From an uncultured Nitrospiraceae bacterium (lineage in GTDB: Bacteria > Nitrospirota > Nitrospiria > Nitrospirales > Nitrospiraceae): a stretch of DNA of 64,000 nucleotides. A program made the translations under genes and the position numbers. The stretch covers positions 128,001-192,000 of the forward strand of contig CAVSTP010000004.1 of the NCBI GenBank assembly GCA_963730935.1, written 5' to 3'. Of this stretch, positions 14,500-42,828 are shown piece after piece; position 1 is the first letter of the stretch; the number at the start of each line of letters is the position of its first letter. The notes below the pieces were generated by a model, which was not told the DNA's origin, ran no database searches, and worked only from the letters and a program-made list of their open reading frames with translations.

Positions 14500-17400
14500 A
14501 TGAAGCAACCAAGCGACGAGCAAGAGAGAACGGCGCTGGAAGAAGCGCCAACCGCGACCAATGGAGGGACGCGGCGACGGCAGGATATTGCCGAGCAACT
14601 CGGCGAAATTCTTAACGTCATGGTCGCTTACCGCAACGGAGATTTCAGCGTCAGGCTGCCGTCGACGTGGACAGGGGTGCTCGGAAAAATGTCCGACACG
14701 ATGAACGATATTCTGGCCGTCAGTCAAAGACGGGCAGAAGAAGTCGTTCGTATCTCGCGCGTCGTCGGTAAAGAAGGACGACTACGGCAGCGTTTGTCCG
14801 TGCCCGGGGTGTCGGGAGGATGGGCGGACGAAATCGATTCACTCAACACATTGATCGACGACCTGGCATCTCCAACGACCGAGGTGACCCGCGCGGTCGG
14901 TGCCGTCGGTAAGGGCGACCTCAGTCAGGCGATGGCGCTGGACAAAGACGGGCGTCCGCTCGAGGGAGAATTCCTTCGCAGCGCGAAGCTGGTCAACAAG
15001 ATGATCGAGCAATTGGCGGTCTTCACATCGGAAGTCACCCGTGTGGCGCGCGAGGTCGGCACCGAAGGCAAGCTCGGCGGCCAGGCCCAAGTCAAAGGGG
15101 CGAGCGGCGTGTGGAAAGAGCTTACCGATTCCGTCAACCAGATGGCCGGCAACCTGACGGCGCAGGTGCGCAACATCGCCGAGGTGACGATCGCGGTCGC
15201 CAACGGCGACCTGTCGAAAAAGATCACCGTCGACGTCCGGGGCGAAATCCTTCAATTGAAAGAGGCCATCAATACGATGGTCGAGCAGCTGCGGTCGTTC
15301 GCCTCGGAGGTCACGCGTGTGGCCCGCGAGGTCGGCACCGAAGGCAAGCTCGGCGGCCAGGCGGTCGTGCCGGGCGTGGCGGGAACCTGGAAAGACCTCA
15401 CCGACAACGTCAATTCCATGGCCTCCAACCTCACCGCGCAGGTCCGCAACATCGTCGAAGTCACGGTCGCCGTGGCCCGCGGCGACTTGTCCCGCAAGAT
15501 CACTGTGGACGTCCGGGGCGAAATTCTTCAGCTCAAGGAAACAATCAATACGATGGTCGAGCAGTTGCGGTCGTTCGCGTCGGAAGTCACCCGCGTGGCG
15601 CGCGAGGTCGGCACCGAGGGTAAGCTCGGCGTCAACGCGGACGTACCTGGCGTCGGCGGAACTTGGAAGGATCTCACCGACTCGGTCAACGCCATGGCCA
15701 ACAACCTGACAGCGCAGGTGCGCAACATCGCCGAAGTCACGACGGCCGTGGCCCGCGGCGACTTGTCCCGCAAGATCACGGTCGACGTGAAGGGCGAGAT
15801 CCTCGCGTTGAAAAACACAATCAACACGATGGTAGACCAGCTCAACGGTTTCGCGGCCGAGGTCACCCGCGTGGCACGCGACGTCGGCACGGAAGGGAAA
15901 CTCGGCGTGCAGGCCGTCGTGCCGGGCGTCGGAGGAACTTGGAAAGATCTCACCGATTCGGTCAACGCGATGGGCGTCAACCTCACGGCGCAGGTGCGCA
16001 ATATTGCCGAGGTGGCGACGGCCGTGGCCCGCGGCGACTTGTCCCGCAAGATCACGGTCGACGTGAAGGGCGAGATCCTCGAGTTGAAAAACACGCTGAA
16101 TACGATGGTGGACCAGCTCAACGGTTTCGCAGCCGAGGTCACTCGGGTCGCGCGTGAGGTCGGCACCGAAGGGAAACTCGGCGTGCAGGCCGTCGTGCCG
16201 GGCGTCGGGGGGACCTGGAAAGACCTCACCGACAACGTCAACAGCATGGCGAACAATCTGACGGCGCAGGTGCGCAATATTGCCGAGGTGGCGACGTCAG
16301 TTGCGCGCGGCGACTTGTCCCGCAAGATCACGGTCGACGTGAGCGGCGAGATTCTTCAGCTGAAGGAAACGATCAACGTCATGGTCGAGCAGTTACGGTC
16401 GTTCGCCTCGGAAGTGACACGTGTGGCCCGCGAGGTCGGCACCGAAGGCAAGCTCGGCGGCCAGGCCCAGGTCAAAGGCGTCAGCGGCGTCTGGAAGGAG
16501 TTGACCGAGAGCGTGAACGAAATGGCGGGAAACCTCACCGCGCAGGTGCGCAACATTGCGGAGGTCACGGTCGCCGTGGCCAACGGTGACTTGTCGAAAA
16601 AGATCATCGTCGACGTGCGCGGAGAAATTCTTCAGTTGAAAGAGGCCATCAATACGATGGTCGAGCAGCTGCGGTCGTTCGCGTCGGAGGTCACCCGCGT
16701 GGCCCGCGAGGTCGGCACGGAAGGCAAGCTCGGCGGCCAGGCCCAGGTCCGTGGTGTCAGCGGCGTGTGGAAGGAATTGACCGACTCCGTCAATCAGATG
16801 GCGGGTAACCTCACAGACCAGGTCCGGAACATCGCCGAGGTGACGATCGCGGTCGCCAACGGCGACCTGTCGAAAAAGATTACCGTCGATGTGCGTGGCG
16901 AAATCCTGCAGCTCAAGGAAGCGGCGAACACGATGGTGGAGCAGCTGCGGTCGTTCGCGTCGGAAGTCACCCGCGTGGCGCGCGAGGTCGGCACGGAAGG
17001 CAAGCTCGGCGGCCAGGCGGTCGTGCCCGGCGTCGCGGGAACCTGGAAGGACCTGACCGACAACGTGAACTCCATGGCATCGAACCTGACGGCGCAGGTG
17101 CGCAACATCGCCGAGGTCACGATCGCGGTTGCCAACGGCGACTTGTCGCGCAAGATCACGGTCGACGTCCGCGGGGAAATTTTGCAGTTGAAGGAGGCCA
17201 TCAACACGATGGTCGAGCAGTTGCGGTCGTTCGCGTCGGAGGTCACCCGCGTGGCCCGCGAGGTCGGGACCGAAGGACGATTGGGCGTGCAGGCGGTCGT
17301 GCCGGGCGTCGCCGGCACGTGGAAGGACCTCACCGACTCGGTCAACGCGATGGGCGCCAATCTCACCGCACAGGTGAGAAACATCGCCGAGGTCACGACC

Positions 17401-20400
17401 GCGGTGGCCCGCGGCGACCTGTCGCGTAAGATCACGGTCGACGTCAAAGGCGAAATTCTCGAGTTGAAGAACACCATTAATACGATGGTCGACCAGCTCA
17501 ACGCGTTCGCGGCCGAGGTCACGCGTGTGGCGCGCGAAGTCGGAACGGAAGGAAAACTTGGCGGTCAGGCGGTCGTGCAGGGCGTGGCCGGTACCTGGAA
17601 GGACCTCACCGACTCGGTCAACGTCATGGCGACCAATTTGACGGACCAGGTCCGCGGCATCGTGAAAGTCGTCACGTCGGTGGCGAACGGAAACTTGAGA
17701 CAGAAGCTGACGGTCGAAGCCAAGGGCGAGGTGGCGGCGCTGGGTGAAACGATCAATAACATGACCGATACCCTCGCGATCTTCGCCGACCAGGTCACCA
17801 ACGTTGCGCGCGAAGTCGGCGTCGAAGGACGATTGGGCGGACAGGCCAACGTACCGGGCGCCGCCGGCACCTGGAAGGACCTCACCGGAAACGTGAACCT
17901 GTTGGCCGCGAACCTGACCACCCAGGTGCGCGCGATTGCCGAAGTGGCGACTGCCGTGACCAAGGGCGACCTGACCCGCTCCATTCAGGTGGAAACGCGC
18001 GGCGAGGTCGCGGAGCTCAAGGACAACATCAATACGATGATCGATAACCTGCGCGTGACCACCGAGCGCAACCAAGAGCAGGACTGGCTGAAGACCAACG
18101 TCGCGAAGTTCACCCGTATGTTGCAGGGGCAACGCGACCTTTTCACAGTCGGCCAGATGCTGCTGTCCGAACTCGCTCCGCTGGTCGAAGCCCAGCAAGG
18201 GACGATGTATCAAATGGACGCCGTCGAAGGGGAAAACCCCTCACTGCGCCTCCTGGCCGCCTATGCCAGTTCACGGGAACCGGAGGATCGGGTAGAAAGC
18301 GGAGAGGGCCTGATCGGTCAATGCGCCTTGGAAAAACAGCGCATTCTCCTCACGGATGTTCCGCCTGCGTACGCCGCAATTCAATCGAGTCTCGGCCGCG
18401 CGCTGCCGGCCAATATCGTCGTCCTGCCCGTGTTGTTCGAAGGGCAAACCAAGGCGGTCATCGAACTGGCCTCGCTGCATACCTTCAAGGTGACGCACCT
18501 CGCGTTCTTGGAGCAGCTCACGCAAAGCATCGGCGTCGTGCTCAATACCATTGAAGCGACGATGCGCACCGAAAACCTACTGCAACAGTCGCAACAGCTC
18601 ACTACCGAGCTGCAGTCTCAGCAGAAAGAATTGACGCAGACCAACGAAGAGCTCGAGCGCAAGGCTAAGCAGCTGGCCGAGCGCAACACGGAAGTCGAGC
18701 GGAAGAACAAGGAAGTCGAGCAGGCACGCCGCGCCCTCGAAGAAAAGGCGGCCGAGCTTGCTTTGACGTCGAAGTACAAATCGGAGTTCCTGGCGAACAT
18801 GTCCCACGAGCTGCGCACGCCATTGAACAGCATTTTGATTCTCGGCCAGCAGCTCGGCGACAACACGACAGGCAATCTGTCGCAGAAGCAGGTGGAATTC
18901 GCCAAGAACATCCACAGCGCCGGTTCTGACCTCCTCAACCTCATCAACGACATTCTGGACCTGTCAAAGATCGAATCGGGCACTGTCACGGTTGAGGCGG
19001 AAGAAATGACCTTCCTGTCTCTGCGTGAGAGCGTCGAGCGCAACTTCAAGCACATTGCCGAGCAGAAGACTCTGCCGTTCCATCTGGAGTTCGAGCCCGG
19101 CCTGCCGCGAGCGTTCACGACCGACCCGAAGCGACTCCAGCAGATTCTCAAGAACCTGCTGTCGAACGCCTTCAAGTTCACGTCCCATGGCCACGTGGCC
19201 ATGAATGTCAGGCTCGCCACCGAAGGCTGGTCGATGGAGCATCCGGTACTGAGCCGGTCGCACACGGTCATGGCGCTCGCAATTACCGACACGGGCATCG
19301 GCATTGCGCCCGAGAAACAGAAGCTGATCTTCGAGGCGTTTCAACAGGCGGATGCCGGCACGAGCCGCAAATACGGCGGCACCGGGTTGGGTCTGGCCAT
19401 CAGCCGCGAACTTGCAACGTTGCTGGGCGGCGAAATCAAGCTGACCAGCGAACCACGGCAGGGCAGCACCTTCACCTTGTATCTCCCCTTGGTGTACACC
19501 GGACCGTCGACGGCGGAGCTTCGTCCGACGATCACCACATCCGTCCCTGGCCAGCCGCCGGCGCTCACCATCCTTCCCGTGGCCGGCGAAGAAAAAATCG
19601 CCGACGACCGGGACACCGTGAAGGACAGCGACCTCGCCGTGCTCATCGTGGAGGACGATCCGCACTATGCGCGGGTCTTGCTGGGGCTGGCACGCGACAA
19701 GGGATTCAAAGGCATCGTGGCCACGCGTGGGAAACAGGCGCTGGATCTCGCGCTAGAATACGTTCCAGCCGCGATCACGCTCGATATCTTCCTCCCCGAC
19801 ATGCTCGGGTGGACCGTGTTGAACAACCTCAAGCTGAATCCAAAGACCCGGCACATCCCCGTGCAGATCATTTCGCTCGAAGAAGAACGGCAGCATGGTC
19901 TGGCACACGGCGCCTTTTCCTACATGGTGAAGCCGGTCACGACCGAAGGCTTGGAATCCTGCTTCGATCGCATCCGGAACTTCATCACGCCGCACCTCAA
20001 GCGGTTGCTGGTGGTGGAGGACAATGAGCTGGAAAGCCGCAGCATCACCGAGTTGCTCCTGCATGACGACATCGAGATCTCCAATGTCAGCACAGGAGCC
20101 GCCGCCTTGGAAGCGCTTCGCACTCAGTCCTTTGACTGTTGTGTGCTCGATCTCCGGCTGCCTGACATGAGCGGCTTCGAACTGCTCGATCAGGTGAAGG
20201 CCGATCCGACCTTGGGCAACGTGCCGATCGTCGTGTTTACGGGGAAAGATCTGAGTACGGAGGAAGAACGGCGGCTGAAAGCGGTGGCCAAGAGCGTCGT
20301 GCTGAAAGACGTCCAGTCGCCAGAACGGCTGTTCGACGAGACGGCCCTCTTCCTGCACCGAGTGGTCGCCGATTTGCCGGAACCCAAACAGCAACTATTG

Positions 20401-20802
20401 GAGCGCTTGCATCAATCGAACGAAGCGTTGCGCGGTCACAAAGTCCTCGTGGTGGACGACGACGCGCGCAATATTTTCGCCCTGACGACGGTGCTCGAGA
20501 ATCAGGATATGGACGTGATCAGTGCCACCAACGGGCGGCATGCCATCGAAATCATTGAACAGACACCGGAACTCAGCGTCGTCCTTATGGACATCATGAT
20601 GCCCGAAATGGACGGCTATACGACGATCCGGGAGATCCGCAAACAGCCCGAGTTCCGGTCCTTGCCGATCTTGGCCTTGACGGCCAAGGCTATGAAGGGC
20701 GACCGAGAAAAGTGCCTGGAAGCCGGCGCCTCGGACTACGTGGCCAAACCGGTGAATACGGAACAGCTCCTGTCCATGTTGCGTGTCTGGCTGTACCGAT
20801 GA
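14500..20802 (+). CDS. Cytoplasmic poly-HAMP hybrid histidine kinase (HAMP array-GAF-HisKA-HATPase-3xREC)
   Basis: 92-aa [16 protein letters not shown] repeats, [13 protein letters not shown]-box, [17 protein letters not shown], three receivers; no TM segment seen. Confidence 0.95.
15031..18066 (+). repeat. 11 tandem 276-bp coding repeats (poly-HAMP units), plus one degenerate unit upstream
   Basis: The EVTRV-type motif recurs at 15031, 15307, 15583 and so on to 17791, exactly 276 bp apart. Confidence 0.9.
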
Positions 20803-20923
20803 AGGTGAACGATGGCCAGGGGGCTGCCAGGTTGAAAATCCGGAAACTCGGCCCTTACACTCACGAGGTGCAGGGGCCGCCATCGGGTATCTCCACGTCC
20901 ACAATGGAGCCGGGATCGACATC

Positions 20924-22072
20924 ATGACGACGTTCAAAGAGCCTGCGAACATCCTACTGGTGGACGACGATTCACGGAACCTCGACGTCCTCGAGAGCAT
21001 CCTATCCATTCCGGACTACAGGCTGTTTCGCGCACGCACGGCCGACGAAGCCCTGCTTGCGCTCATTGCGGACGAATTTGCCGTTATCGTGCTGGATGTG
21101 CGCATGCCGGACGTCAGCGGCTATGAGTTGGCCCAACTGATCAAGCAGCGCAAGCGGACGCAGCACATCCCCATTCTCTTCTTGACGGCCTACTACCGCG
21201 AAGACGGGGACGTGCTCCAAGGCTATGGCGCCGGGGCGGTGGACTATCTGAGCAAACCGGTCAATCCGCTCATCCTGAAGTCCAAGGTGGCGGTGTTCGT
21301 GGATCTCTTCCGCAAGACCCGGGCGCTGGCCACGATGAACCGGGCCATGGAGGTGGAGATCGAAGAGCGGCTCAAGCAGCTCAAGACCTCGTTGCATGAA
21401 AAAGACATTCTGCTTAAGGAAGTGCATCACCGGGTCAAGAACAATCTGCAAGTGATCTCCAGCCTGATCGATCTGCAGGCGGAGCGCCTCACGGATCCGG
21501 CGACTCGGACGCTCTTCCGCGACACGCGTGATCGCGTCCGATCCATGGCTTTGGTGCACGAGAAGCTGTATCAATCCGCCGATCTCGCGCACACGGAGCT
21601 TGGCGCCTACATACGAAACGTCATGAAGGAGTTATTCCTGGCGCACGGCGAGGTGTCGTCCAAGGTCACGTTGCAGCTCGAGCTTGAACCGGTGTTTCTG
21701 CCGGTCGATATGGCCATTCCCTGCGGACTCATTCTCAACGAACTCGCGACCAATAGCCTCAAGCATGCGTTCGTGGGACGAGAGCACGGCACGATCGACA
21801 TCCAGCTGATCAGCGTAGGCAATGAATCGGTGCGTCTGCTCTTCCGGGACGATGGATGGGGATTGCCGGCTGGGCTCGAATTACAGGCGGCCGAGTCGTT
21901 GGGATTGCGCCTGATCCGCATGCTGAGCAAGCAGTTGCGCGGCGAAGTGGTGACACAAACAGGGAAGGGGACCACGTTCGAATTGCGGTTCCAGATCCCG
22001 GACTCGCGTGTCGGTTCATCTCCCGAGGCAAAGGCGGTACCCGATGCCCAAGGCGAACATACTCATCGTTGA
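20924..22072 (+). CDS. Receiver-histidine kinase of the HisKA_2 class
   Basis: ILLVDD...LDVRMP receiver; [12 protein letters not shown]-box; [17 protein letters not shown]. Start set at ATG 20924. Confidence 0.9.
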
Positions 22073-24467
22073 AGATGAAGCGGTCGTGGCGGCCGATTTA
22101 GCCGGCAAGCTCGAACGGGCAGGGTACCGTTCGATCGGCATCGCCTGCGACGGTGAAGACGCCGTGGAGACGGCGAAGGCCCTTGTGCCGGATCTCGTGC
22201 TGATGGACATCCGGTTGGCCGGTTCCATTGACGGCATCAAAACCGCCGAACGTATTCAAGCCTTCCGGAACATCCCTATCGTCTATCTGACCGCCCATTC
22301 CGACATGGCCACCCTGCGGCGCGCCGCCGCAACTGAACCCTTCGGGTACATTCTCAAGCCTTTTGAGGAGCGCGATGTCACGACCCAGATCGAGATCGCT
22401 CTCTTCAAGCACCAGGCGGAACGGCGCTTGCGCGAAAGCGAAGAGCGGTATCGCAAGCTCGTCGAAACCGCGATGGACAGCATCATCACGTTCGATCATG
22501 CCGGACTCATTCTCTCGTGCAATGCGGCGACCGAACACATGTTTGGCTATCGTAGCGAAGAGATGGTCGGACGAAATATCTCGATGCTGCTCCCCGCATG
22601 GTTTGCCGAAGGAGGGGACGAATCCCCCGCCGATGCGGCCAGCCGCATCATGCGGCTCATCGGTCTCTGGCGGGAAGTGAACGGGCGGCGCCGGGAGGGC
22701 GACGACTTTCCCGTCGAGATTGCCGTCAGCGAGAGTTTTTCCAATGGGGAAGTCCGGTACACAGGAATCCTGCGCGACATCTCGGAACGCAAGCGGACCG
22801 AGGCGGAACTTCGATGGCGTGCCGGCCTGCTCGCTCAGACCCATGATGCGGTGGTGGTCTGGCGGATGGGCGGAGGCGTCATCTACTGGAATCACGGAGC
22901 GGAAGAACTGTACGGGTGGAAGGTGGCAGAGGCGGCCGGCCGGCCGATCCATCGATTGTTGTCCTCCGCCTTGCCGCTCTCCGAGGAGGAGTTTCACCGT
23001 CAGCTGATCGAGAACGGCCGGTGGCAGGGCGAGATCCGCCAAGCGACCAAAGACGGACAGGCGGTGATTGTTGAAAGCCGGATGGTGACGATGACCGAAG
23101 AATTCGGCGGCATTCTGGTGCTTGAGACGAACCGGGACGTCACCGAGCGTCGGGCGATCCATGAGAAAGTGTGCCGGCTGGCCGAAGAGCTCGAGGACCG
23201 GGTCAAGGACCGTACCAAGGAGTTGCTCCAATCGCAGAGCTTGCTGCGTCAGCTCGCGTCAGAACTGACGATCGCTGAGCAGCGGGAGCGGCGACGCATC
23301 GCCACGGACCTGCACGATTACCTCGCGCAACTGCTGGTCTGCGCGCGGCTGAAGGTTTCGCAGTCCCGCGGACACGTGGGGGACTCGGAAGTCGAAAGCT
23401 GGCTTGGCGAATCCGACGACATCCTGCAACAGGCGCTGACGTATACCCGATCGTTGGTCGCCCAGCTGACCCCGATGGCTCTGCACGAATTCGGCCTGGC
23501 GGCGGCGCTCAAGTGGCTGGCCGATCAGATGCGCCAGCAGTACCGGCTGTCGGTGCAGGTGGACGTGCAGCAGGGCATGTCCGTCACGTTGCCCGAAGAT
23601 CAGTCGGTCCTGATCTTCCAGTCCATCAGAGAGCTCCTCATCAATGTGGCGAAGCATGCCCGCGTCGATCAGGCGGCGATTCGAATGGAGCAGCGCGATG
23701 GACGGCTGGTGATCGCTGTCATCGACGAAGGCCTCGGATCCGATACGATCACTTCGCCGCCACCGAAGTTGTCTTCGAAATTTGGATTGTTCAGCATCGC
23801 CGAGCGCATGCGCGCGCTGGGCGGGACCTTCGAGTTCCGGTCCACGCACGGCAAGGGCACGACGGCCACGCTCACGCTGCCCCTTCCGGCGGTTGGCGCT
23901 GATGCCCCGGCTCCGGCTCCGAAGCCGCAAGCCAACGTGATGCCACAGCCGCAGCCGGCCGCCACCGAGTATTCGCAGCTCCATGCTCAGAAGTCGGCGT
24001 TTGGCGGCAGCCTGGAACGCGGGAGACAGAGCGATCCTCTCGAGGACAAGCTCCGCATTCGGGTGCTGCTCGTGGATGATCACGCACTCGTCAGAAACGG
24101 CCTCTCGAGCGTGTTGCGCTATCACACGGAACTACAAGTAGTCGGCGAGGCTGCCGACGGCCAGGAAGCGGTCGCGTTGGCGGTCGCCTTGAAACCCGAC
24201 GTCGTTGTCATGGACGTCAACATGCCTCGAATGGACGGTGTGGAAGCGTCGAAGCGCATCAAGCGGGAGCTGCCGGGGACGGTCGTGATCGGCCTGTCCA
24301 TGCATGAGGGGGGGCACCACGAAAATGCGATGCGGGAATCGGGCGCCGCCGCCTATTTGACGAAGGATTCGGCCGCGGACCGCTTGATCGAAACCATCCT
24401 CAGATGCCGGGCGGCGAGCCTCACGGGCACGAACGCCTTTTTCTCATCATCGTCGCTGTCGGAGTAA
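22044..24467 (+). CDS. REC-PAS-PAS-HisKA_3-HATPase-REC hybrid kinase
   Basis: ILIVEDE receiver; two [44 protein letters not shown]-terminal VLLVDDH receiver without HTH. Confidence 0.92.
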
Positions 24468-25326: not shown

Positions 25327-25336
25327 AAGCATAACG

Positions 25337-25474: not shown

Positions 25475-25824
25475 GTCGCGAAAATTCCAGTCACCGTGCT
25501 TGATCGTCACCCGTCCTCTTCATCCCCTTCACGCTCGACAACCCTGGGTCTCTGATACTATTCACCCGAGGGGAGAAAGCTTAATGAAACAGTATTCATA
25601 TAGAAATTATCGTCCCCTGCTCGGACAAGTTGTCCCGCCTTGTAGGAATCGGGTGCTAGGTCAATCCCTGTAGAGACCGGCGACATCCTGTTTTCATAAG
25701 ATTCCTCACGGATCTCGTCATGGTACTCGTTCGGAACTATTCTTGCACTACTCTAAAGTGAGTAAGTAATTGCGCGGTCTTTGAACAGGATCGGGATGCA
25801 CTGAGCCTGCTTTAGGAGACGAAG

Positions 25825-26204: not shown

Positions 26205-26246
26205 AACTAGGGGTATCCCTAGGGGTTGGCGTAGTCCAATCCCTAC
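26205..26246. promoter_or_regulatory. Perfect operator palindrome plus two overlapping degenerate copies at 12-bp spacing
   Basis: CTAGGG GTAT CCCTAG (26207-26222); AACTAGGGGTATCCCTAG is identical to 14393-14410. Then CTAGGG GTTG GCGTAG (26219-26234) and GTAGTC CAAT CCCTAC (26231-26246). Confidence 0.7.
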
Positions 26247-26373
26247 TATACTTCTTTCGTTTCACCAACAACTTACGACGTCTGACGGATCCGGAGACCA
26301 CCCTAACGACGGGTTAGGGATGCCGAGATGTGAATGCTCGCGGGCATCTCTGAAGAGTGACTGAAGGCAACGA

Positions 26374-29049: not shown

Positions 29050-29504
29050 CACAGGGAATGGACATTTTGTTGATTGAAGACAATCCCGAGGACGTCGAGA
29101 TCACGTTGCGGGCCTTTCAGAAGCATCACATTGCGAACAAAATTCATGTGGTGAGAGACGGGGAAGAGGCATTGGAATGCCTGTTTTCCACCGGGCGGTA
29201 TGCGGAAGGAAGTCCCTGCCAGAATACCCGGCTCATCCTTCTCGATCTCAAGCTCCCGAAGGTCGACGGGCTGGAAATCCTACAGAAGTGCAAGAGCGAC
29301 CCACGCACCAGGCACATCCCCGTCGTCGTCCTGACCTCCTCACGTGAAGAGGAGGATCTGGCCAAAAGCTATAATTACGGCGTGAACAGCTACGTCGTCA
29401 AACCGGTCGATTTTCCGCAGTTCAGTGATGCGGTTCGGCAAGTAGGTCTCTATTGGATGCTGCTCAATCACGTGCCTGCGGAACTGTCGATGGATTCCGT
29501 ATAG
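29046..29504 (+). CDS. Single-domain response regulator (Rcp1-like)
   Basis: ILLIEDNPED, LILLDLKLPKVDGLE, VVLTSSREEED, NSYVVKP. Confidence 0.93.
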   Translation: MTQGMDILLIEDNPEDVEITLRAFQKHHIANKIHVVRDGEEALECLFSTGRYAEGSPCQNTRLILLDLKLPKVDGLEILQKCKSDPRTRHIPVVVLTSSREEEDLAKSYNYGVNSYVVKPVDFPQFSDAVRQVGLYWMLLNHVPAELSMDSV

Positions 29505-34300: not shown

Positions 34301-35316
34301 CGGATGACGTGTTGGCCGAGGCGCTTGATTACACTCGAACGATGGTGGCCGAATTGAGCCCGCCCGTACTGCATGAGCATGGGTTGGGTGCAGGCCTCCT
34401 GTGGCTGGCCAATCAGATGAAACGACATGACCTGACGGTGACGGTACGGGTTCCTGAGACCGAGATCTCGCTGCCAGAGGAACAGGCGGTCTTGCTGTTC
34501 CAATCGGTCCGAGAGCTCTTGATCAATGTGGCCAAACATGCGCACTCGCATGAAGCGACCGTCGTCCTCGAACGGGCCGAGGGCAGTCTGCGTATTGAGG
34601 TGAAGGACAACGGGGCGGGCTTTGACGTGGCCAGCAAGGCTCTGGAGCTGGCCGACGGTCCGCAGGGAGCGGTGTCCTCAAAGTTCGGGTTGTTCAGTAT
34701 CCGGGAACGCATGAAAGCGCTCGGCGGCACCTTCGACATCCGTTCTTCTCAGGGACAGGGCACCACGGCGACGTTGTCGTTGCCGGTTGGGACGGACACC
34801 TTCGCCGCATGTGACACGATGAATGGAACATCAGCCATCAGGGGAGAGGGTGCCGTGGCAGTGAAGCGAGCGTCCGGTCAGGGCTCATCTGAAGCCTCAG
34901 AGGCCTCCCTTGAGCACAAACCTCCGAAGGTGCGTGTGCTGTTGGTGGACGATCACGCCATGGTTCGCGAAGGATTGCGCAGCGTCCTTGATTCTTACGA
35001 TGACGTGGAGATTGTGGGCGAGGCCTCAAACGGCCAGGACGCGGTAGCGCTGGTCGAGCAGCTGCGCCCCGCGCTCGTCGTCATGGATATCAACATGCCG
35101 GGCATGAACGGCATCGAGGCGACGGCCCATATTACGAGAACATATCCTGAGATCCAGGTGATTGGGTTGTCCGTCAATGCGACAGGGAACAATGTCCAGG
35201 CCATGCTGAAGGCTGGCGCCGTCCTTCTTCTCACCAAAGAGGCCGCGGTGAACGAGTTATATCGCACGATGCGGGAAGTGCTGGAGCATGTCGGAAGCGG
35301 GTCGGCTTCCCAGTGA
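31315..35316 (+). CDS. Dual-core hybrid kinase: PAS-GAF-HisKA-HATPase-REC-PAS-HisKA_3-HATPase-REC
   Basis: FSNVSHEFRTP and GTGIGLA (first core); VLVVDDNADMR receiver; EQRERKRLAAELHDHLQQ and FGLFSIRER (second core); terminal receiver. Confidence 0.9.
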   Translation: MTRNVVKDTKEPTNDFLSGGGEVTRLVRTFDWAKSDLGPAEGWPQSLKTAVRIMLDSRYAMWLGWGPNLTFLYNDAYAKMTLGPKHPWALGRSAREVWSEIWSDIGPRAEAVLSTGQATWDEGLLLFLERMGFPEETYHTFSYSPVPDDQGAIGGMLCVVTEDTGRTIGERRLRTLRELSAQTNEETKSVEDTCRITARILGANPHDVPFALLYLLDAPDRQAHLAAIAGIERETPASPSSVELGTAQDPWSFDVVRHTGAALERSDLSHTVGVVRAGAWPEPVKQAVVLPVAKPGQARPTGFLVVGVSPRRPFDEAYRGFLDMLAVQVASAIGNARAYEEERKRAEALAELDRAKTTFFSNVSHEFRTPLTLMLDPLVEALHDPVSDTDPAHKERLEFAYRNSRRLLKLVNSLLDFSRIEGGRMEASYEPTDVAAVTAELAGVFRSAMEQAGLSLHVDCPPLSEPVYVDRDMWEKIVLNLLSNAFKFTFEGGVSVSVHEEMHPAHCMVLHVRDTGTGIPNDQLSRIFERFHRVQGARGRTIEGTGIGLALVKQLVQLHGGTIDAASELNRGSAFSVKFPFGTSHLPQDHLRGPRLLTSTASRADVFVEEALRWLPSSDANDERGFEPGADSIAPVPHAALPISQARPRVLVVDDNADMRGYLGRLLSQHYEVETVTNGRVALARVESQPPDLVLTDVMMPEIDGFGLLCELRRRPETKTLPVILLSARAGEESRIEGLERGADDYLIKPFSAKELLARVAAHLEIARVRREAERALRHQNEQFETLLKQAPLGVYLVDADLRIAQVNPVALPVFGDISNLIGRDFDEVVHVLWEKPYADEIMTLFRHTFETGEPYVAPERIERRSDRDVIESYEWRIDRILLADGRFGVVCYFRDVSVQVLAREALRRSEERLREFASQLEQLVGERTQELVQSQARLRALATELNLAEQRERKRLAAELHDHLQQMLVLGKLKLGQGMRLPHAPPRAIEIMKQTDDVLAEALDYTRTMVAELSPPVLHEHGLGAGLLWLANQMKRHDLTVTVRVPETEISLPEEQAVLLFQSVRELLINVAKHAHSHEATVVLERAEGSLRIEVKDNGAGFDVASKALELADGPQGAVSSKFGLFSIRERMKALGGTFDIRSSQGQGTTATLSLPVGTDTFAACDTMNGTSAIRGEGAVAVKRASGQGSSEASEASLEHKPPKVRVLLVDDHAMVREGLRSVLDSYDDVEIVGEASNGQDAVALVEQLRPALVVMDINMPGMNGIEATAHITRTYPEIQVIGLSVNATGNNVQAMLKAGAVLLLTKEAAVNELYRTMREVLEHVGSGSASQ

Positions 35317-35421: not shown

Positions 35422-36279
35422 ATGGGGCAGAACACGCAGATGGCCGAAGAAATTCAAAAACGCCAGGATGCCATTTTAAAAGATTGGATGGGGTATCAAA
35501 TGTCCTCGCTGACGTTGAGACGGGATCTGGTGAAGGAATCAGCGCTGCGGGAGTCCTCGCGGCAGTTTTTGGAACTGTTTGGAGAGGCGCTTGCCACGAG
35601 CGACGACGTCTCGTCGCCCCACTGGAAGCCGGTGAAAGACAATCTTGCGGAGGTCTCCAAGACCCGCGCGGTCCTGGGATTTAGCCCCTCCGAGACGGCG
35701 ACATTTGTGTTTTCGCTCAAGCAGCCGTTGTTCGATCTGGCGCAGCAACGGTTAGGTCAGGACGCCAAGCGCTTGGCCGAATTCCTTTGGAACCTCACCA
35801 TCATCCTGGACAAGCTGGGTCTCTACACGACGGAGGTCTATCAGGAGAGCCGGGAAGGGGTAATTAGCCGGCAGCAGCAGGAACTGATGGAATTGTCCAC
35901 GCCCGTTGTCCAACTGTGGGACGAGGTCCTGGCGCTGCCGCTCATCGGCACACTCGACAGCGCGAGGACGCAGGTCGTCATGGAGAATTTACTGCAGCGG
36001 GTGGTGGAGACCGGCGCCCGGATCGCGATCATCGACATTACCGGAGTGCCGACGGTCGATACGCTGGTGGCACAACATCTCATGAAGACCGTCGCGGCGA
36101 CGCGTCTCATGGGGGCGGACTGCATCATCAGCGGCATCCGTCCGCAGATCGCCCAAACGATCGTCCATCTGGGCGTCAACCTGAACGACATCGTGACCAA
36201 GGCCACGCTGGCGGACGCCTTTCAGGTCGCGTTAACGCGGCTGGGTTCGATGGTTTCGAAGGCGGGGCCGACGGCATAG
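35422..36279 (+). CDS. rsbR: Stressosome RsbR-like protein (RsbRD_N-like domain plus STAS)
   Basis: ELSTPVVQLW, LPLIGTLDSAR, IDITGVPTVDTLVA, ISGIRPQIAQT; ATG 35422 follows GGAGG. Confidence 0.9.
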   Translation: MGQNTQMAEEIQKRQDAILKDWMGYQMSSLTLRRDLVKESALRESSRQFLELFGEALATSDDVSSPHWKPVKDNLAEVSKTRAVLGFSPSETATFVFSLKQPLFDLAQQRLGQDAKRLAEFLWNLTIILDKLGLYTTEVYQESREGVISRQQQELMELSTPVVQLWDEVLALPLIGTLDSARTQVVMENLLQRVVETGARIAIIDITGVPTVDTLVAQHLMKTVAATRLMGADCIISGIRPQIAQTIVHLGVNLNDIVTKATLADAFQVALTRLGSMVSKAGPTA

Positions 36280-36317
36280 GTTCGATAGGCCACACGCTCA
36301 TACAAACGGAGAAACGG

Positions 36318-36701
36318 ATGGAACGCATTCCCATACTCAAGATGGGCCCCTATCTGCTGGTGACGATCCAGGTCGATATGCATGACCGCATCGCGATGAA
36401 CCTGCAGGATGAGTTGACCCAGCGCATCGTCACCGAGCGGGCGCGAGGGGTGCTCCTGGACATTTCCTCCGTAGATGTCGTCGATTCGTTCATCGGCCGC
36501 ATGATCGGCAACATAGCCTCCATGTCGCGGGTGCTGGATGCCGAGACAGTCGTGGTGGGCATGCGCCCGGCTGTGGCCATTACGCTGGTGGAGCTGGGGT
36601 TGGCGTTGCCGAGCATCAGGACCGCCCTCAACGTGGACGCCGGAATGACGCTGCTCAAGTCGGCCAGAAAGATGTCGGGCAATGGCCGTCCTGCGCGATG
36701 A
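36318..36701 (+). CDS. rsbS: Stressosome RsbS-like STAS protein
   Basis: MERIPILK, DISSVDVVDSFIGR (phospho-Ser), VGMRPAVAITLVELG. Confidence 0.92.
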   Translation: MERIPILKMGPYLLVTIQVDMHDRIAMNLQDELTQRIVTERARGVLLDISSVDVVDSFIGRMIGNIASMSRVLDAETVVVGMRPAVAITLVELGLALPSIRTALNVDAGMTLLKSARKMSGNGRPAR

Positions 36702-37086
36702 GCTGATCGGCCTGCGGTCGACGGACGATATCATCAAGGCCCGCCAGCACGTGCGGGACTGCGCCATCTTCCTCGGCCTGTCGCTGGTCGATCAAACCAA
36801 GATCGTCACTGCCGCCAGCGAGCTGGCGCGAAACACGCTGATTCACGGAGGAGGCGGCGAGATGCACCTGCAAGCGCTGAACGACGGCCCGCGTCGCGGC
36901 GTGAAAGTCATTTTTGTCGATAGCGGTCCGGGCATTCCCGATATCGAGCTGGCGATGAAGGACGGCTATACGACGCGCGGCGGACTGGGATTGGGCCTGA
37001 GCGGGTCCAAACGGCTTGTGAACGAGTTTGCCATCGAAAGCCAACCTGGAAAAGGCACGACGGTCAGCATCGTGAGGTGGAAATGA
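36682..37086 (+). CDS. rsbT: RsbT-like Ser/Thr switch kinase
   Basis: TAASELARN, DSGPGIPDIELAMKDGYTT..GLGLGLSGSKRLVNEF. Confidence 0.92.
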   Translation: MAVLRDELIGLRSTDDIIKARQHVRDCAIFLGLSLVDQTKIVTAASELARNTLIHGGGGEMHLQALNDGPRRGVKVIFVDSGPGIPDIELAMKDGYTTRGGLGLGLSGSKRLVNEFAIESQPGKGTTVSIVRWK

Positions 37087-38117
37087 TTGAAACAATTCCC
37101 TTTGATCAGATCTGTGTGCCGGTGACGGAGTCGAGTCAACCAGCGGCTGCGAGACGTGCGGCCGTCTCCTTGGCACAAGACGCAGACTTGGACGAGCCGA
37201 CCGTCGGCCATCTGGCGCTGGTCGTGACCGAGCTGGCCACGAATCTCGTGAAGCATGCGAAAGGCGGAGAGCTGCTGATGCGCCGGCTCGGTGCCGAAGG
37301 ACAGGAAGGCATCGAAGTGCTGTCGCTGGACAAAGGGCCCGGGATTTCCAATGTCGCGCGGTCGCTCGGCGACGGCTATTCGACTGCCGGAAGCTCGGGA
37401 ACGGGATTGGGTGCTGTGCTGCGCAGGGCCGGCGCCTTCGATCTGTACTCCCAGCCGGAGAAGGGCACGGCGGTGGTCGCGCGGGTGTTCGCACAGAGTC
37501 GGACAGGTTCGCCGCATGCCCAATCGGTCGGAGTGGTCCGGCAGGCGAAACACGGTGAAGTCGTCTGCGGCGACAACTGGATTGTCCGTTGGTTCGCGGA
37601 CGGATGGGTGTGCGCAGTGGTGGACGGGCTGGGACATGGTGTGATTGCATCGGACGCCGCGACGGCGGTCATCGACGCGGTGCGCCGCGCCCCGGGCAGG
37701 CTTTCGCCGGTCGAGATCGTGGAAGCGGCCCATCAGGCGGCAAAACCGACGCGGGGAGCGGCATTCGGCGTTGCGGTCCTCGACGAAGCGGCCGGGGTCG
37801 TTCGGTTCGCGGGGGTCGGCAATATTGCGGCGGTGGTCGTGAACGGTGCCGAGCGACGGCATCTCGTCTCCTATAACGGCATCATCGGCCATGAGTACCG
37901 CAAACTCTCGGAGTTCTCGCATCCGTGGCAGGCCCAGTCGGTCTTGATCCTGCATAGCGACGGCATCGCGACCCAGTGGGACCTCGAGCGCTATCCCGGG
38001 CTTCTCGCACGAGACCCCAGCCTCATCGCGGGCGTGCTCTACCGCGATTTCACGCGTGGCCGTGACGATGCCACCTTGGTCGTGCTCAAGACGCGAGGCA
38101 CAGACGGGCTTCAATAG
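37083..38117 (+). CDS. HATPase(RsbT-like)-SpoIIE/PP2C phosphatase fusion (RsbX-like)
   Basis: TELATNLVKHA, DGYSTAGSSGTGLG; PP2C motifs CGD, VDGLGHG, HSDG, DDAT. Confidence 0.87.
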   Translation: MIETIPFDQICVPVTESSQPAAARRAAVSLAQDADLDEPTVGHLALVVTELATNLVKHAKGGELLMRRLGAEGQEGIEVLSLDKGPGISNVARSLGDGYSTAGSSGTGLGAVLRRAGAFDLYSQPEKGTAVVARVFAQSRTGSPHAQSVGVVRQAKHGEVVCGDNWIVRWFADGWVCAVVDGLGHGVIASDAATAVIDAVRRAPGRLSPVEIVEAAHQAAKPTRGAAFGVAVLDEAAGVVRFAGVGNIAAVVVNGAERRHLVSYNGIIGHEYRKLSEFSHPWQAQSVLILHSDGIATQWDLERYPGLLARDPSLIAGVLYRDFTRGRDDATLVVLKTRGTDGLQ

Positions 38118-38125
38118 GAGACGTT

Positions 38126-40309
38126 ATGCCCCAGAGCATCAGTGCCGTCGAAATCAACTATGAAGACGATGTGGTGACCGCTCGGCAGCGGGCGCGGCTG
38201 GTGGCGCGGCTGCTCTCGTTCGACGAGCAGGACCAGACCAGGATCTCGACCGCCCTTTCTGAGATTGCGAGATTGTTCGTGCACTCGAACAAGGGTAGTC
38301 GCATCGAGTTCCAGCTCGAAGGAGCCACCGCTCCACAAGTCTTGCTCATCGAGATCAGCTGGACCCGTGGCGCCGGCGCCAGGGCCCGTGCTGGCGCGGC
38401 CGGGAACGGCGGAACGCTTGGTCCTGAGTGGGAGGGACCGCTCATCGCCGCGCGGCGGCTCATGGATCAGTGCGAAGTGGTAGCCGCTTCGTCGGAGGCG
38501 CGCGAGATCCGTCTGGCGAAAATACTTTCCCCGAAAGCGCCGTTCATTACCGGCAAGACCTTGGATCGGGTCGTCAAGCAGCTGGGGAAGCAAGAACCGC
38601 AGAATCCCATCGAAGAGGTCAGACAGCAAAACCAGGAATTACTCAGAGCCTTGGAGGAGTTGCACGAACGGCAGCAGGAGTTGATCCGCCTCAACGGCGA
38701 GCTGGAAGATACCAATCGTGGCGTGGTCGCGCTCTATGCCGAACTGGATGAGAAGGCGGGGCATTTGCGGCGCGCGGACGAAATGAAATCGCGCTTCCTC
38801 TCCAACATGAGCCATGAATTCAGAACGCCGGTGAATGCGATCCTCGCCTTGTCGCACTTGCTGCTCGAGCACACCGACGGGGAGCTCAACAGCGAGCAGA
38901 CCAAGCAGGTCAACTATATCCGCAAGAGCGGAGAGGACCTGCTGGAACTCGTCAATGACTTGCTGGATTTGGCCAAGATTGAAGCGGGCAAAGTCACCGT
39001 CAAGGTTTCCGAGTTCGAGGTGGCGAATCTCTTCAGCGCCTTGCGTGGTATGCTGCGGCCACTCCTGGTCTCGAACGTCGTGAATCTCGTCTTCGACGAG
39101 CCGGTGGGGATTCCGCTCATGCAGACCGATGAAGGCAAGGTGTCTCAAATTCTCAGGAATTTCATTTCCAATGCGATCAAGTTCACCGAGCGGGGCGAGG
39201 TGCGCGTGGCCGCAGCATTGACGGCAGACGGGCGCTCGGTCGCCTTTTCCGTGGCCGATACGGGCATCGGCATTGCGCAGGACGATCAAGGACGCATTTT
39301 CGAAGAATTTTCCCAGCTCGATCATCCGATTCAACAGCAGGTCAAGGGCACGGGCTTGGGACTTCCACTGTGCCGGAAACTGGCTCAGCTGCTTCGCGGA
39401 TCGGTGGAGCTCACCAGCCGGCCGGGCGAGGGGTCAACGTTCATCGCCACGATCCCTGTGAATTACGCCGTCGATGACATCGAACGGGCCGAGCAGCTCG
39501 AGCCGGTACGGGTGTCGGAGGAGGACGACAGGCTTCCTGTGCTGGTCGTAGAAGACGAACCCGAAACGCGCCTGTTGTACGAGAAGTATCTGCGCGGCAC
39601 GCCGTACAGGCCGATTCCGGCCGGCAGCATCAGGCAGGCCCGTGAACAGTTGCGTCGACACCCCATCGCTGCGGTCGTCCTCGACGTGCTTCTACCCGAT
39701 GAGCCCGCTTGGCAATGGCTCGCAGAGCTCAAGCGTGAAGCAGCAACTGCGAAGTTGCCGATTTTCGTTGTGTCGAGCGTAGAGGATCCACGGAAAGCTC
39801 TCGCGCTCGGAGCAGACGACTATTGCCTCAAGCCTCTGCGGCGAGCGTGGCTGCTCGAACGACTGCAACGGGTGACAAAGCTCGTTCCAGATCCGTCAAA
39901 GAGTGTTCCGCTGGTGCTGATCATCGACGATCAGGAAACCGACCGGTATATCATCCGCCATCGCCTCGACGAATCCGGATGTTCGATCATCGAAGCCACC
40001 GGAGGTGAAGAAGGCCTGCAATTGGCTCGTCAATTGAAGCCGGCCCTGATCCTGCTTGATCTCAATATGCCCGGCATGGACGGTTTTGAAGTCCTTGCTC
40101 GGCTGGCTGAAGATCCCGCCACTGCTCCGCTTTCGGTGACGATTGTCACTTCACAAATTCTGACACCGGAGCAGTACCAGGCGCTCACACATGCCCGTGG
40201 GGTGCTCCTCAAACATGAGTTGTTCCCGGCCGTCTTGCAGCGGGTCTTCCGTGAAGCAGGGCTCGGATATCTCGAGCTGACCGCCCCGGAAACGACCAAG
40301 CCTGCGTAA
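38126..40309 (+). CDS. Stressosome-linked hybrid kinase: degenerate RsbT-like domain-HisKA-HATPase-REC-REC
   Basis: EDDVVTARQRAR...DQTRISTALSEIAR; ELEDTNRGVVALYAELD; MSHEFRTP; GTGLGL; two receivers. Confidence 0.9.
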   Translation: MPQSISAVEINYEDDVVTARQRARLVARLLSFDEQDQTRISTALSEIARLFVHSNKGSRIEFQLEGATAPQVLLIEISWTRGAGARARAGAAGNGGTLGPEWEGPLIAARRLMDQCEVVAASSEAREIRLAKILSPKAPFITGKTLDRVVKQLGKQEPQNPIEEVRQQNQELLRALEELHERQQELIRLNGELEDTNRGVVALYAELDEKAGHLRRADEMKSRFLSNMSHEFRTPVNAILALSHLLLEHTDGELNSEQTKQVNYIRKSGEDLLELVNDLLDLAKIEAGKVTVKVSEFEVANLFSALRGMLRPLLVSNVVNLVFDEPVGIPLMQTDEGKVSQILRNFISNAIKFTERGEVRVAAALTADGRSVAFSVADTGIGIAQDDQGRIFEEFSQLDHPIQQQVKGTGLGLPLCRKLAQLLRGSVELTSRPGEGSTFIATIPVNYAVDDIERAEQLEPVRVSEEDDRLPVLVVEDEPETRLLYEKYLRGTPYRPIPAGSIRQAREQLRRHPIAAVVLDVLLPDEPAWQWLAELKREAATAKLPIFVVSSVEDPRKALALGADDYCLKPLRRAWLLERLQRVTKLVPDPSKSVPLVLIIDDQETDRYIIRHRLDESGCSIIEATGGEEGLQLARQLKPALILLDLNMPGMDGFEVLARLAEDPATAPLSVTIVTSQILTPEQYQALTHARGVLLKHELFPAVLQRVFREAGLGYLELTAPETTKPA

Positions 40310-40338
40310 CCCATCACAATTCTGAAAGGCAAGCGTAC

Positions 40339-42828
40339 ATGGAAGCCGTTCGGCAGAGCGAACAACATCTGGAGATGATCAGCAACACCGTGCCGGCTCT
40401 GATTTCTTACGTCGATAGGGATCTCTGTTACCGCACGTGCAATGAGGCCTATCTCAAGTGGTTCGGTGTGTCGCGTGAGGACGTCATTGGAAAGCCGGTT
40501 CGAGAGATTTTGGGTGAAGAGGCCTGGTCGACCGTGCTCCCCTATGTCGAGGCGGGATTTGCCGGCGAGACGGTCGACTATGAAATAGACGTTAACTATC
40601 TGCGGGCTGGAAGGCGCTGGATACACGCCGTCTATACCCCCCATCGGAATGCTCTCGGAGAGGTGATCGGCCTCGTGGTCATGGTGACCGACATTACGGC
40701 GCGCAAGCGGGCCGAGGAGGCGCTTCGCGAAGGCGACGAGCGTTTCCGGGCCGTCGCCAACCAGGCCACCGTCGGTGTGACACGCACGGACCTGACCGGA
40801 CGCTTTACCTTCGCGAACCCCAGGTACTGCGAGATTGTGGGCTATACACAAGCGGAACTTCTCGAGATGCGCACGGAGGACATTACCCACGCGGAGGATC
40901 TGCCAGGCAATCGCGAACAGTTCCATCGACTCGTCGACGGGGGTGCGGATTTCGTCATCGAGGAACGCGATATCCGCAAAGACGGCCGCGTGATCTGGGT
41001 GAACAACAGCGTGAGCGGCGTGCGCGACGCCAATGGGCAGCTCAAGGGCGCATTGGCGGTCACGCTTGACATTACCCAGCGCCGTCGGCAGGAACTTGAG
41101 CTCGCGCATCGAAGCCGCCAGCAAGTGCTCATGTATGAATTGGCGGAGGTAGTGAACCATGCTGATGTGCTTGACGATCTCTATCAAAAGGCGCTGGACG
41201 TCATTACCGCTTCACTGAACGCCCACCGCGGTTCCATTCTCTTGCTCGATCCCGACGGTGTGATGCGGTTCAAGGCCTGGCGAGACCTCTCGGAGCCGTA
41301 CCGCCGCGCGGTAGAAGGGCACAGCCCTTGGACTCGGGAGGAGCGCATCCCTAGGCCGATTCACGTGAGCGATGTGACGGAAGCGGCTCTCGACGCCCCC
41401 CTGGCGGACGTGATCCGGCGGGAGGGGATTCGAGCGTTGAGCTACATCCCCCTGACCTCCGGCGGCCGGTTGATCGGAGAATTCATGGTCTATTTCGACC
41501 TGCCTTACGTCATGAGCGATGAAGACCGCAGCCTGGCGCAGGCCATTGCCGGGACGTTGGCTATCGGCATCGAGCGCAAAACGGCTGAGGCCCAACTTCG
41601 GCAGCAGCAGGGCCAGCTCCAGGCGTTTGCCGATCAATTGGAGCAGCTGGTGAACAAGCGGACGCAGGAATTGGTTCAATCCCGTGATCAGCTGCGTGCG
41701 TTGGCCAAGGAGCTCAATCTGGCCGAGCAGCGTGAACGGAAACGGGTGGCGGCGGAGCTCCACGACTATCTCGCACAATTGCTGGTCCTTGCCAAAATGA
41801 AGCTGGGACAAGGCAAGCGCCTCGCCGACCGGATTCCAGCCTGTGTCGAATTCATCAGGGAAAGCGAAGATGCCTTGGCGGAGGCCCTGACCTACACCAG
41901 GACATTGGTGGCTGATCTGAGCCCGCCCGTGCTTCATGATTTTGGCCTACCGACCGCGCTGGGCTGGCTGGGTCAACAGATGGAGCGTCACCAATTGAAG
42001 GTTGCAGTCCGCGTGGCGCAGGACGTTCATCCCAAGCTGCCGACCGATCGCGCATTGCTGGTCTTTCAATCGGTGCGAGAGCTGCTGATGAATATTGCCA
42101 AGCACAGCGGCACGGGAGAAGCGTTTCTTTCGCTCGCGCAATCCGGCGGCTATCTCCGCATCGAGGTCCGGGACGAGGGAAAGGGTTTTACCGTTGCGCC
42201 TGAATCGGGAGCCTCGACCAAGTTCGGCTTGTTCAGTATCCGCGAACGAATGAGAGCGCTGGGCGGCACCTTCGACATCGATTCGGCTCCCGGGAAGGGA
42301 ACGACAGCGGTGTTGACCTTGCCATTTGACGACGAAAGGGTGACGGAATGTGAGCTTGTCGAAGCAGAAGTGGAAGGTGAGGAGCCTGTCAACGCCTTAC
42401 GCCGGTTCGATCCTGCGTTGTTCCAGGGGCAGCATTCCTCGTCCTCTCAGCACGGCACAGAGCCCATCCGTGTGTTGTTGGTTGACGACCACGCCATGGT
42501 CCGTCAGGGACTCCGCAGCGTGCTGGACGATTATGCGGACATCGAAGTGGTCGGAGAAGCGGCCAACGGTGAGGAGGGGGTCGCCATGACCGACCGGCTT
42601 CGCCCCTCGCTGGTGCTGATGGACATCAACATGCCGAAGATGAGCGGAGTCGACGCGACCGCTCACATCAAAGCCCGCCATCCCGGGATCGTGGTCATCG
42701 GCCTATCGGTACAAGCGGGTCATGAACCACACTTGGCCATGTTGAAGGCTGGAGCGACAAGACTGCTGACGAAGGAAGCGGCGGTCGATCAACTCCATCA
42801 CGCGATTCTACAGGCCCTGAACAGGTAG
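40339..42828 (+). CDS. PAS-PAS-GAF-HisKA_3-HATPase-REC hybrid kinase
   Basis: Two [43 protein letters not shown] receiver. Confidence 0.9.
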   Translation: MEAVRQSEQHLEMISNTVPALISYVDRDLCYRTCNEAYLKWFGVSREDVIGKPVREILGEEAWSTVLPYVEAGFAGETVDYEIDVNYLRAGRRWIHAVYTPHRNALGEVIGLVVMVTDITARKRAEEALREGDERFRAVANQATVGVTRTDLTGRFTFANPRYCEIVGYTQAELLEMRTEDITHAEDLPGNREQFHRLVDGGADFVIEERDIRKDGRVIWVNNSVSGVRDANGQLKGALAVTLDITQRRRQELELAHRSRQQVLMYELAEVVNHADVLDDLYQKALDVITASLNAHRGSILLLDPDGVMRFKAWRDLSEPYRRAVEGHSPWTREERIPRPIHVSDVTEAALDAPLADVIRREGIRALSYIPLTSGGRLIGEFMVYFDLPYVMSDEDRSLAQAIAGTLAIGIERKTAEAQLRQQQGQLQAFADQLEQLVNKRTQELVQSRDQLRALAKELNLAEQRERKRVAAELHDYLAQLLVLAKMKLGQGKRLADRIPACVEFIRESEDALAEALTYTRTLVADLSPPVLHDFGLPTALGWLGQQMERHQLKVAVRVAQDVHPKLPTDRALLVFQSVRELLMNIAKHSGTGEAFLSLAQSGGYLRIEVRDEGKGFTVAPESGASTKFGLFSIRERMRALGGTFDIDSAPGKGTTAVLTLPFDDERVTECELVEAEVEGEEPVNALRRFDPALFQGQHSSSSQHGTEPIRVLLVDDHAMVRQGLRSVLDDYADIEVVGEAANGEEGVAMTDRLRPSLVLMDINMPKMSGVDATAHIKARHPGIVVIGLSVQAGHEPHLAMLKAGATRLLTKEAAVDQLHHAILQALNR

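Follow-up and report, generated by a model that had tools for sequence, protein, structure and literature searches.

The DNA analysed here (the window) is a stretch of 64,000 nucleotides from an uncultured Nitrospiraceae bacterium (genome G000, 4.05 Mb, 57% GC; contig C4, G000:C4:128001-192000). Within it lies a block of signalling genes (Table 1), four of which, named by their start positions as 22044, 29539, 31315 and 40339, end in HisKA_3, HATPase_c and a terminal Response_reg domain by Pfam. A preliminary description, made from the sequence alone, had read these genes as the ends of four stress-input branches that funnel onto one NarL-type regulator encoded elsewhere. The modules hold up well: the H-box and the N, G1 and G2 boxes are intact in all four cores, as are the receiver Asp, Ser and Lys, with pairwise identities of 48-62% for the cores and 46-65% for the receivers. 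The Pfam count likewise agrees with the nine kinase cores (4 HisKA, 1 HisKA_2 and 4 HisKA_3 dimerisation domains) and 14 receivers (3+1+2+1+2+2+2+1) that had been reported. In keeping with the reported lack of a DNA-binding, sigma, Hpt or c-di-GMP output, the Pfam scan found no GerE, sigma, Hpt, GGDEF or EAL family in the 19 open reading frames (ORFs) scanned; the HAMP repeats gave weak HTH_6/SpoIIID rows that came to 0 stretches. One detail needs correction, as the input of gene 31315 is not fused directly to its module; an extra PAS domain sits between the first receiver and the module. Two unrelated genes interrupt the block (PRC-barrel 24580, 25825), and nearly all of the closest relatives of gene 40339 carry the label Nitrospira or Nitrospiraceae.

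Table 1. Signalling genes and palindromic sites in the window (HTH, helix-turn-helix)
Feature	Position	Strand	Remarks
Hybrid kinase: poly-HAMP (11) - GAF - HisKA - HATPase - 3 receivers	14500..20802	+	Pfam
Kinase: receiver - HisKA_2 - HATPase	20924..22072	+	Best NCBIfam match PhyK, below cut-off
Module 1: PhyR-type receiver - 2 PAS - HisKA_3 module - HTH-less receiver	22044..24467	+	
Kinase: DUF4118 membrane - PAS x4 - HisKA	26374..29049	+	Pfam
Single-domain receiver	29046..29504	+	Pfam; presumably Rcp1-like
Module 2: receiver - HisKA_3 module - HTH-less receiver	29539..31311	+	Pfam
Module 3: PAS - GAF - HisKA - HATPase - receiver - PAS - HisKA_3 module - HTH-less receiver	31315..35316	+	
Stressosome genes rsbR (35422), rsbS (36318), rsbT (36682), rsbX-like (37083)	35422..38117	+	Pfam; RsbX-type phosphatase at 37083-38117
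Stressosome-associated HisKA hybrid kinase, 2 receivers	38126..40309	+	
Module 4: PAS - PAS - GAF - HisKA_3 module - HTH-less receiver	40339..42828	+	
Operator A (1 mismatch)	495..510		-10-like hexamer on minus strand; second site 566-581
Operator A between BON gene (minus) and glgC-treY (3011-7143)	2885..2900		No -10 at the usual spacing
Operator A (1 mismatch) before plus-strand run 7242-14192 with Ku, topoisomerase IB	7176..7191		-10-like hexamer 7214-7219
Operator A before poly-HAMP operon	14395..14410		-10-like hexamer 14435-14440
Operator A before PAS-kinase operon	26207..26222		-10-like hexamer 26247-26252
Operator A (1 mismatch) between DUF3015 gene (minus) and treZ - debranching enzyme	43473..43488		No -10 at the usual spacing
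Motif B (GACA-N3-TGTC)	25624..25634		Sigma-54-like promoter ~25732-25748, before gene 25825-26136

PhyR-type receivers are the usual partners of HisKA_2 kinases. Branch 1 can credibly be read as a cascade, because the N-terminal receiver of gene 22044 is of this type (92 bits on the receiver half of the PhyR model, cut-off 240), a HisKA_2 kinase is encoded next to it, and the three-gene order is kept in genome G001. The order of branch 2 is kept in G001, G060 and G069. Branch 4, drawn from the stressosome through the hybrid kinase to gene 40339, is weaker than branch 1: the genes are indeed adjacent, but 40339 has no N-terminal receiver and its sequence therefore offers no tie to the stressosome kinase. 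That kinase occurs in 13 genomes and is followed by a module gene in seven (G000, G005, G062, G073, G106, G107 and G027, the last two judged from coordinates), by no module in two (G069, G095), by another receiver gene in two (G003, G036) and by a contig edge in two. In a separate arrangement (L110-L111, L117, L103 and L118 in G094, G060, G062 and G040), a hybrid kinase of 1030-1050 amino acids, two genes that we read as CheR/CheB-like and a module gene form an order that recalls B. cereus RsbK-RsbM-RsbY with the phosphatase replaced.

Profiles built from the four window copies recovered 18 cores genome-wide, which form one clade (100/99) among 26 HisKA_3 kinases. The helix after the histidine in the dimerisation and histidine phosphotransfer (DHp) domain is common to all 18, including seven without a fused receiver; at the specificity-setting positions established for DesK-DesR, the residues are common to the four window cores and not divergent. 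Of 52 receivers placed in a tree, 39 make up a module-receiver clade (100/99), comprising 11 fused receivers, 27 lone receivers and one fused to a sigma2-cupin protein. The four modules of the proposed funnel are thus real, but the network in this genome has 18 kinases and 39 receivers. Among 121 Nitrospiraceae genomes the core is present at E<1e-50 in 45, with 1-20 copies, counts that are lower bounds with 23 candidates scored per genome. The fused core-receiver spans at least ten phyla, among them Planctomycetota, Omnitrophota, Desulfobacterota, Acidobacteriota and Spirochaetota, and 51 of 76 cores outside Nitrospira(ceae) carry a fused receiver. Because the family is genome-wide, with varied inputs and a gene order that is shuffled in relatives, the four window modules are the local representatives of a mobile output cassette joined to varied inputs. 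Clustering of all ORFs round 79 module loci returned mostly antisense noise and no conserved neighbour.

Several members of the receiver clade deserve separate mention. Two lone receivers on different contigs (G000:C2:628235 and C4:973021) have identical proteins, a recent duplication, and HTH-only LuxR-type genes at G000:C2:1067941, C4:902709 and C3:283357 could partner lone receivers. The sigma2-cupin protein (G000:C4:986724-988043; L081:2727-4043, minus strand) joins a module-clade receiver to region 2 of an extracytoplasmic function (ECF) sigma factor and a cupin-like tail. It sits between two receiver-less module cores and is either a real fusion or a read-through; with no sigma region 4 and a single copy, it was set aside as a candidate output of the system.

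The block is flanked by typical general-stress genes (BON, glgC, treY, Ku, topoisomerase IB, treZ and debranching enzymes) and by genes for a thiamine pyrophosphate (TPP) enzyme, cyclopropane synthase and ligD. Like genes (glgB, MscS, superoxide dismutase, glgX, ferritin-like, BON) extend over ~C4:109-256 kb. Motif discovery in 77 leaders of this island against 2045 others gave two palindromes, A and B. Motif A, here called operator A, is CTRGGG-N4-CCCYAG and has seven window matches at ≤1 mismatch compared with 0.38 expected in shuffles, an enrichment that is partly circular because the island was the training set. Checks independent of that training agree with it. In a genome that is 80% coding, 48 of its 56 matches are intergenic. 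Of 173 pooled sites, 82 have a -10-like TANNNT hexamer 22-24 bp downstream (other offsets have a mean of 9.1 and a maximum of 18), which places the operator centre near -43.5, the position of a class II activator. This spacing is consistent with a class II sigma-70 activator promoter, in which the operator would overlap the -35 region at a fixed distance from the -10. Generic promoter and terminator scans gave results at chance level, and a likeness to the staphylococcal NreC box that we had presumed was not confirmed.

The genes behind operator A bear on the proposal that a shared regulator drives the flanking stress genes. The operator is common to glgC/treY, treZ, the second Ku and the trehalose synthase genes, in line with that proposal, but it also leads the kinase operons, which places the kinases inside the regulon. 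Outside the island, sites precede the second Ku gene, a DUF5752-amylase-TreT trehalose operon and genes for universal stress protein (USP), hemerythrin, short-chain dehydrogenase (SDR) and glyoxalase. Further sites lie before module genes C4:236712 and C2:420500 and before 3 of 28 other clade receivers. Four operator-led runs, those in the window being joined over 105-122 bp gaps by reading, hold 7 of the 18 module genes, compared with 39 of 2187 leaders genome-wide. Operator A precedes like gene types in G001, G040, G053, G060 and G094.

GerE matches number 21 in the genome, and a search for orphan NarL-type regulators found a candidate reader: RR1 (G000:C4:250717-251370) and RR2 (251507-252172), a tail-to-tail pair with no adjoining kinase, 80 kb away from the module block. 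Both retain the phospho-acceptor Asp, Thr and Lys, and operator A lies in RR1's own promoter. RR1 orthologues (E<1e-60, a cut set at a score gap after inspection) occur in 41 of the 121 genomes, all 41 among the 45 that have the module and none among the 76 that lack it; RR2 is adjacent to RR1 in 38 of the 41. The regulator postulated elsewhere in the genome thus has a candidate that tracks the module across 121 genomes, but the candidate is a pair and not a single protein. Two other orphan NarL genes, C4:194327 (13/121 genomes) and C4:1748589 (8/121), were rejected as readers and the orphan kinase C2:795835 (6/121) as a partner, since none of the three tracks the module. Extra RR1 copies (76-80% identical), without RR2, are found at G000:C2:321682 and C3:100730 among lone module-clade receivers.

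Operator counts differ with the presence of RR1. Exact sites average 4.5 in RR1-positive genomes (at least two in 33/41) versus 0.41 in RR1-negative genomes (at least two in 5/80); these tallies include the unpublished genomes G061 (RR1-negative, 1 site, also among the 13 with C4:194327) and G006 (in the treZ tally below), neither of which carries any conclusion by itself. In the window's genus the numbers are 5-13 with RR1 versus 0-1 without, and counts are higher in RR1-positive genomes in all seven genera that have both kinds. Of 54 RR1 loci, 37 have the operator ≤400 bp upstream of the gene. Across the Nitrospira-type RR1 loci (n=54), a module kinase is present in 23 and a clear HisKA_3 kinase of another class, with its own regulator, in one. 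In G021 and G023, which lack RR1 but have 5 and 4 operator sites, the sites adjoin ordinary regulators from the RR1 subfamily; this links the box to that recognition helix. Conversely, G062 has module cores and neither pair nor operator, indicating that the operator follows the pair and not the kinases. We consider it very probable that the RR1/RR2 pair binds operator A.

Our best explanation, put forward tentatively and a little short of what we would call probable, is a general-stress regulon under the control of a pair of NarL-type activators, with the module cores phosphorylating RR1 and RR2 in trans. We infer the phosphotransfer from module to pair, and observe the architectures, clades, operator, spacing and co-distribution on either side of it; that the modules feed the pair by some route, direct or through an indirect relay, seems reasonably probable. 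The inputs would run from the poly-HAMP kinase through the receiver-HisKA_2 kinase to module 1, from the membrane PAS kinase to module 2 and through an internal relay in module 3, joined by PAS/GAF domains and probably the stressosome. They would control autophosphorylation of module-class HisKA_3 cores that share one specificity, and these would phosphorylate the orphan RR1 and RR2, possibly as a heterodimer. HTH-less receivers, whether fused or lone, would compete for phosphate and act as dampers; an inhibitory fused receiver has a precedent in B. cereus RsbK (PMC4574943; this and the other papers cited are drawn on in excerpt). The activated pair would then bind CTRGGG-N4-CCCYAG near -43.5 and recruit sigma-70-family polymerase to the trehalose/glycogen, Ku, BON, USP and hemerythrin genes, to RR1 itself and to the kinase operons, the last two giving positive feedback.

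A number of observations weigh against this explanation. The 39-member receiver clade contains no HTH-bearing regulator, RR1 and RR2 score 80 and 84 bits on the fused-receiver profile, below several regulators that have their own kinases, and RR2's closest relatives adjoin kinases from a different HisKA_3 class. No operator at ≤1 mismatch precedes 11 of the 18 module genes or 25 of the 28 other clade receivers, and three of the seven window sites, among them the glgC and treZ ones, have no -10 at 22-24 bp. Four of the 45 module genomes (G062, complete and with 6 cores, G007, G083 and G087) lack RR1 and have 0-1 operators, and treZ is present in 22 of 80 RR1-negative genomes as well as 35 of 41 RR1-positive ones. 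In 842 kb around non-Nitrospiraceae modules we found one operator match, and a NarL gene is rare there. Co-distribution can also arise from one island gained or lost whole, and related genomes are not independent.

Alternatively, the modules may belong to the regulon without feeding the pair, ending instead on their own receivers with a non-transcriptional or some other output, while RR1 and RR2 are activated otherwise. This would fit G062, which keeps modules with the same specificity residues and no pair, as well as the placing of RR1/RR2 in a different receiver clade and the fused architecture that occurs without the operator in other phyla. We nevertheless think it somewhat unlikely: no other orphan HisKA_3 kinase follows the pair's distribution, RR1 is confined to genomes with modules, and in other phyla receiver-free module-class cores adjoin ordinary NarL regulators (L260, L283, L286). 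The same pair could also be reached indirectly, with HTH-less receivers either passing phosphate via receiver-less cores or binding RR1/RR2 as partners. The co-evolved partners of the cores are HTH-less receivers, and the genome has 27 lone receivers and seven receiver-less cores, of which C4:983787 and C4:991112 fail the G1/G2 patterns; only four Hpt matches occur in the genome and none in the island. SdrG-PhyT-PhyR offers a precedent (PMC5898713), as do RcsB-type heterodimers. By analogy this route is conceivable, but we judge it unlikely, since the lone receivers differ at the specificity positions of alpha-1 and the coding scores of several are very low, a picture that looks like drift, and several RR1-positive genomes have only 1-2 cores.

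The genome encodes RpoD-type, RpoH-like and ECF sigma factors, together with an RpoS-like protein (C4:1613322) whose best match, RpoS, scores 334 bits, below the cut-off of 394. The claim that the system operates without SigB or PhyR/EcfG is upheld as regards SigB/F/G-family sigma factors (0 matches over the TIGR02980 cut-off) and full PhyR (only the receiver half of the model matched, 92 versus 240 bits), and is qualified by the RpoS-like sigma and by a separate sigma-54-type regulon. Motif B, with sigma-54-like promoters, occurs in 5 of 11 island leaders versus 30 of 2045 elsewhere, a count that is partly post hoc as the sigma-54 pattern was adjusted after viewing one site. Motif B, often in tandem, also precedes an NtrC-type two-component pair (G000:C4:228710-232241). 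It is, on our reading of the leaders, the mark of a second island regulon of small exported proteins, separate from that of the modules and kept in G062. RpoS promoters have C at -13. An alternative sigma, either RpoS-like or sigma-54 with the island NtrC-type regulator, as the master that kinases and operator fine-tune is very improbable despite these matches, as 16 of 18 genomes of the genus carry the RpoS-like gene irrespective of the operator, operator promoters have no C bias at -13 (0.30), and none of the 11 operator-A leaders has a sigma-54 site. Operator promoters may nevertheless use RpoS as their sigma. A partner-switch locus without SigB, with a SpoIIE phosphatase match split over two frames and a STAS gene, lies at C4:1480731-1482073 and is possibly frameshifted.

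The candidate regulon resembles several known systems in part. As in other HisKA_3-NarL/FixJ systems, the kinases combine HisKA_3 and HATPase_c with intact catalytic boxes, but here no GerE-fused cognate receiver stands beside the kinase and the candidate pair is 80 kb away. The closest parallels are DosS/DosT-DevR of M. tuberculosis and OsdK-OsdR of S. coelicolor, in which HisKA_3 kinases serve an autoregulated NarL-type activator and a palindrome with the same GGG/CCC half-sites precedes clustered stress genes including USP (PMC5069765). The half-site spacing of the OsdR consensus AGGGCCGATCGGCCCT differs from that of operator A (PMC5069765), and RR1/RR2 are not orthologous to DevR/OsdR, their best NCBIfam rows being MctR and PRK15369, both below cut-off. 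The kinases here are hybrids, up to ~20 per genome, not beside the regulator, and there are two regulators; the inputs would be poly-HAMP, stressosome and PAS devices in place of the oxygen- and NO-sensing heme-GAF domains of the DosR system. Two orphan NarL-type regulators able to act together are also known in BldM-WhiI of Streptomyces (PMC4125116); RR1 and RR2 retain the acceptor residues, and their heterodimer is putative.

The input devices and the kinds of target match those of the SigB pathways (B. subtilis RsbRST-RsbU and B. cereus RsbK-RsbM-RsbY; PMC3231935). Here rsbR, rsbS, rsbT and rsbX are present and a SigB-family sigma with RsbU/V/W downstream of the stressosome is absent, the place of the PP2C phosphatase being taken by the HisKA_3-receiver module. 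The Pak-SdrG-PhyT-PhyR-EcfG system of Alphaproteobacteria likewise has many kinases, lone receivers and HisKA_2 next to a PhyR-type receiver (PMC5898713), whereas in our case only the PhyR receiver half is found and the output would be a class II activator in place of an ECF sigma. Vibrio vulnificus rsbRSTX shares the hybrid kinase downstream and the lack of SigB (PMC9237108). Outputs of Gram-negative stressosomes are described there as unresolved, and N. moscoviensis has been noted to carry stressosome genes, without this output (bioRxiv 10.1101/138586). In the excerpts drawn on, these two papers (PMC9237108, 10.1101/138586) name no Nitrospira transcriptional output, for which we propose a regulator pair and an operator. 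By analogy, the regulon is one that would work like DosRST/OsdKR wired to SigB-type sensors, outside membership of the DosR, SigB or PhyR systems.

The interpretation given in the preliminary description is thus partly supported. New here are the palindrome before kinase operons and stress genes and the NarL pair as its likely reader. Such a switch would govern general stress without relying on the usual stress sigma factors, in a genome in which an RpoS-like sigma is present. In the titles and abstract openings of the open-licence literature, we found no description of this regulon. On a broader view, which we regard as a doubtful though real possibility, it would be a further general-stress architecture beside RpoS, SigB and EcfG, with SigB-type sensors (stressosome, poly-HAMP and RsbK-like kinases) placed on interchangeable HisKA_3-receiver cassettes that replace PP2C, up to ~20 per genome converging on a single heterodimeric NarL activator that feeds back positively; in its at least ten phyla the cassette would feed other NarL master regulators. 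If true, the locus would provide a stress master switch, the first for Nitrospira, which are key nitrifiers in soils and water plants, and might explain why some lineages (41 of the 121 genomes sampled) may better survive drying or starvation. For the question of what Gram-negative stressosomes and bacterial poly-HAMP kinases signal to, the locus offers named, purifiable parts: one kinase class, two regulators, one operator and ~45 candidate promoters.

Three minor observations follow. In the RNA runs, shares were ≤0.23 and coverage came mostly from other organisms' HAMP repeats (contigs only), so that they yielded no evidence of expression or of start sites. In the G001 island (L107, G001:C1:1702990-1708200), ligD and the TPP-enzyme gene are reduced to short fragments, a partial decay of the regulon. 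At the island edge (window 62422-64000), NusG-like and heparinase II/III-like genes begin a polysaccharide-type locus.

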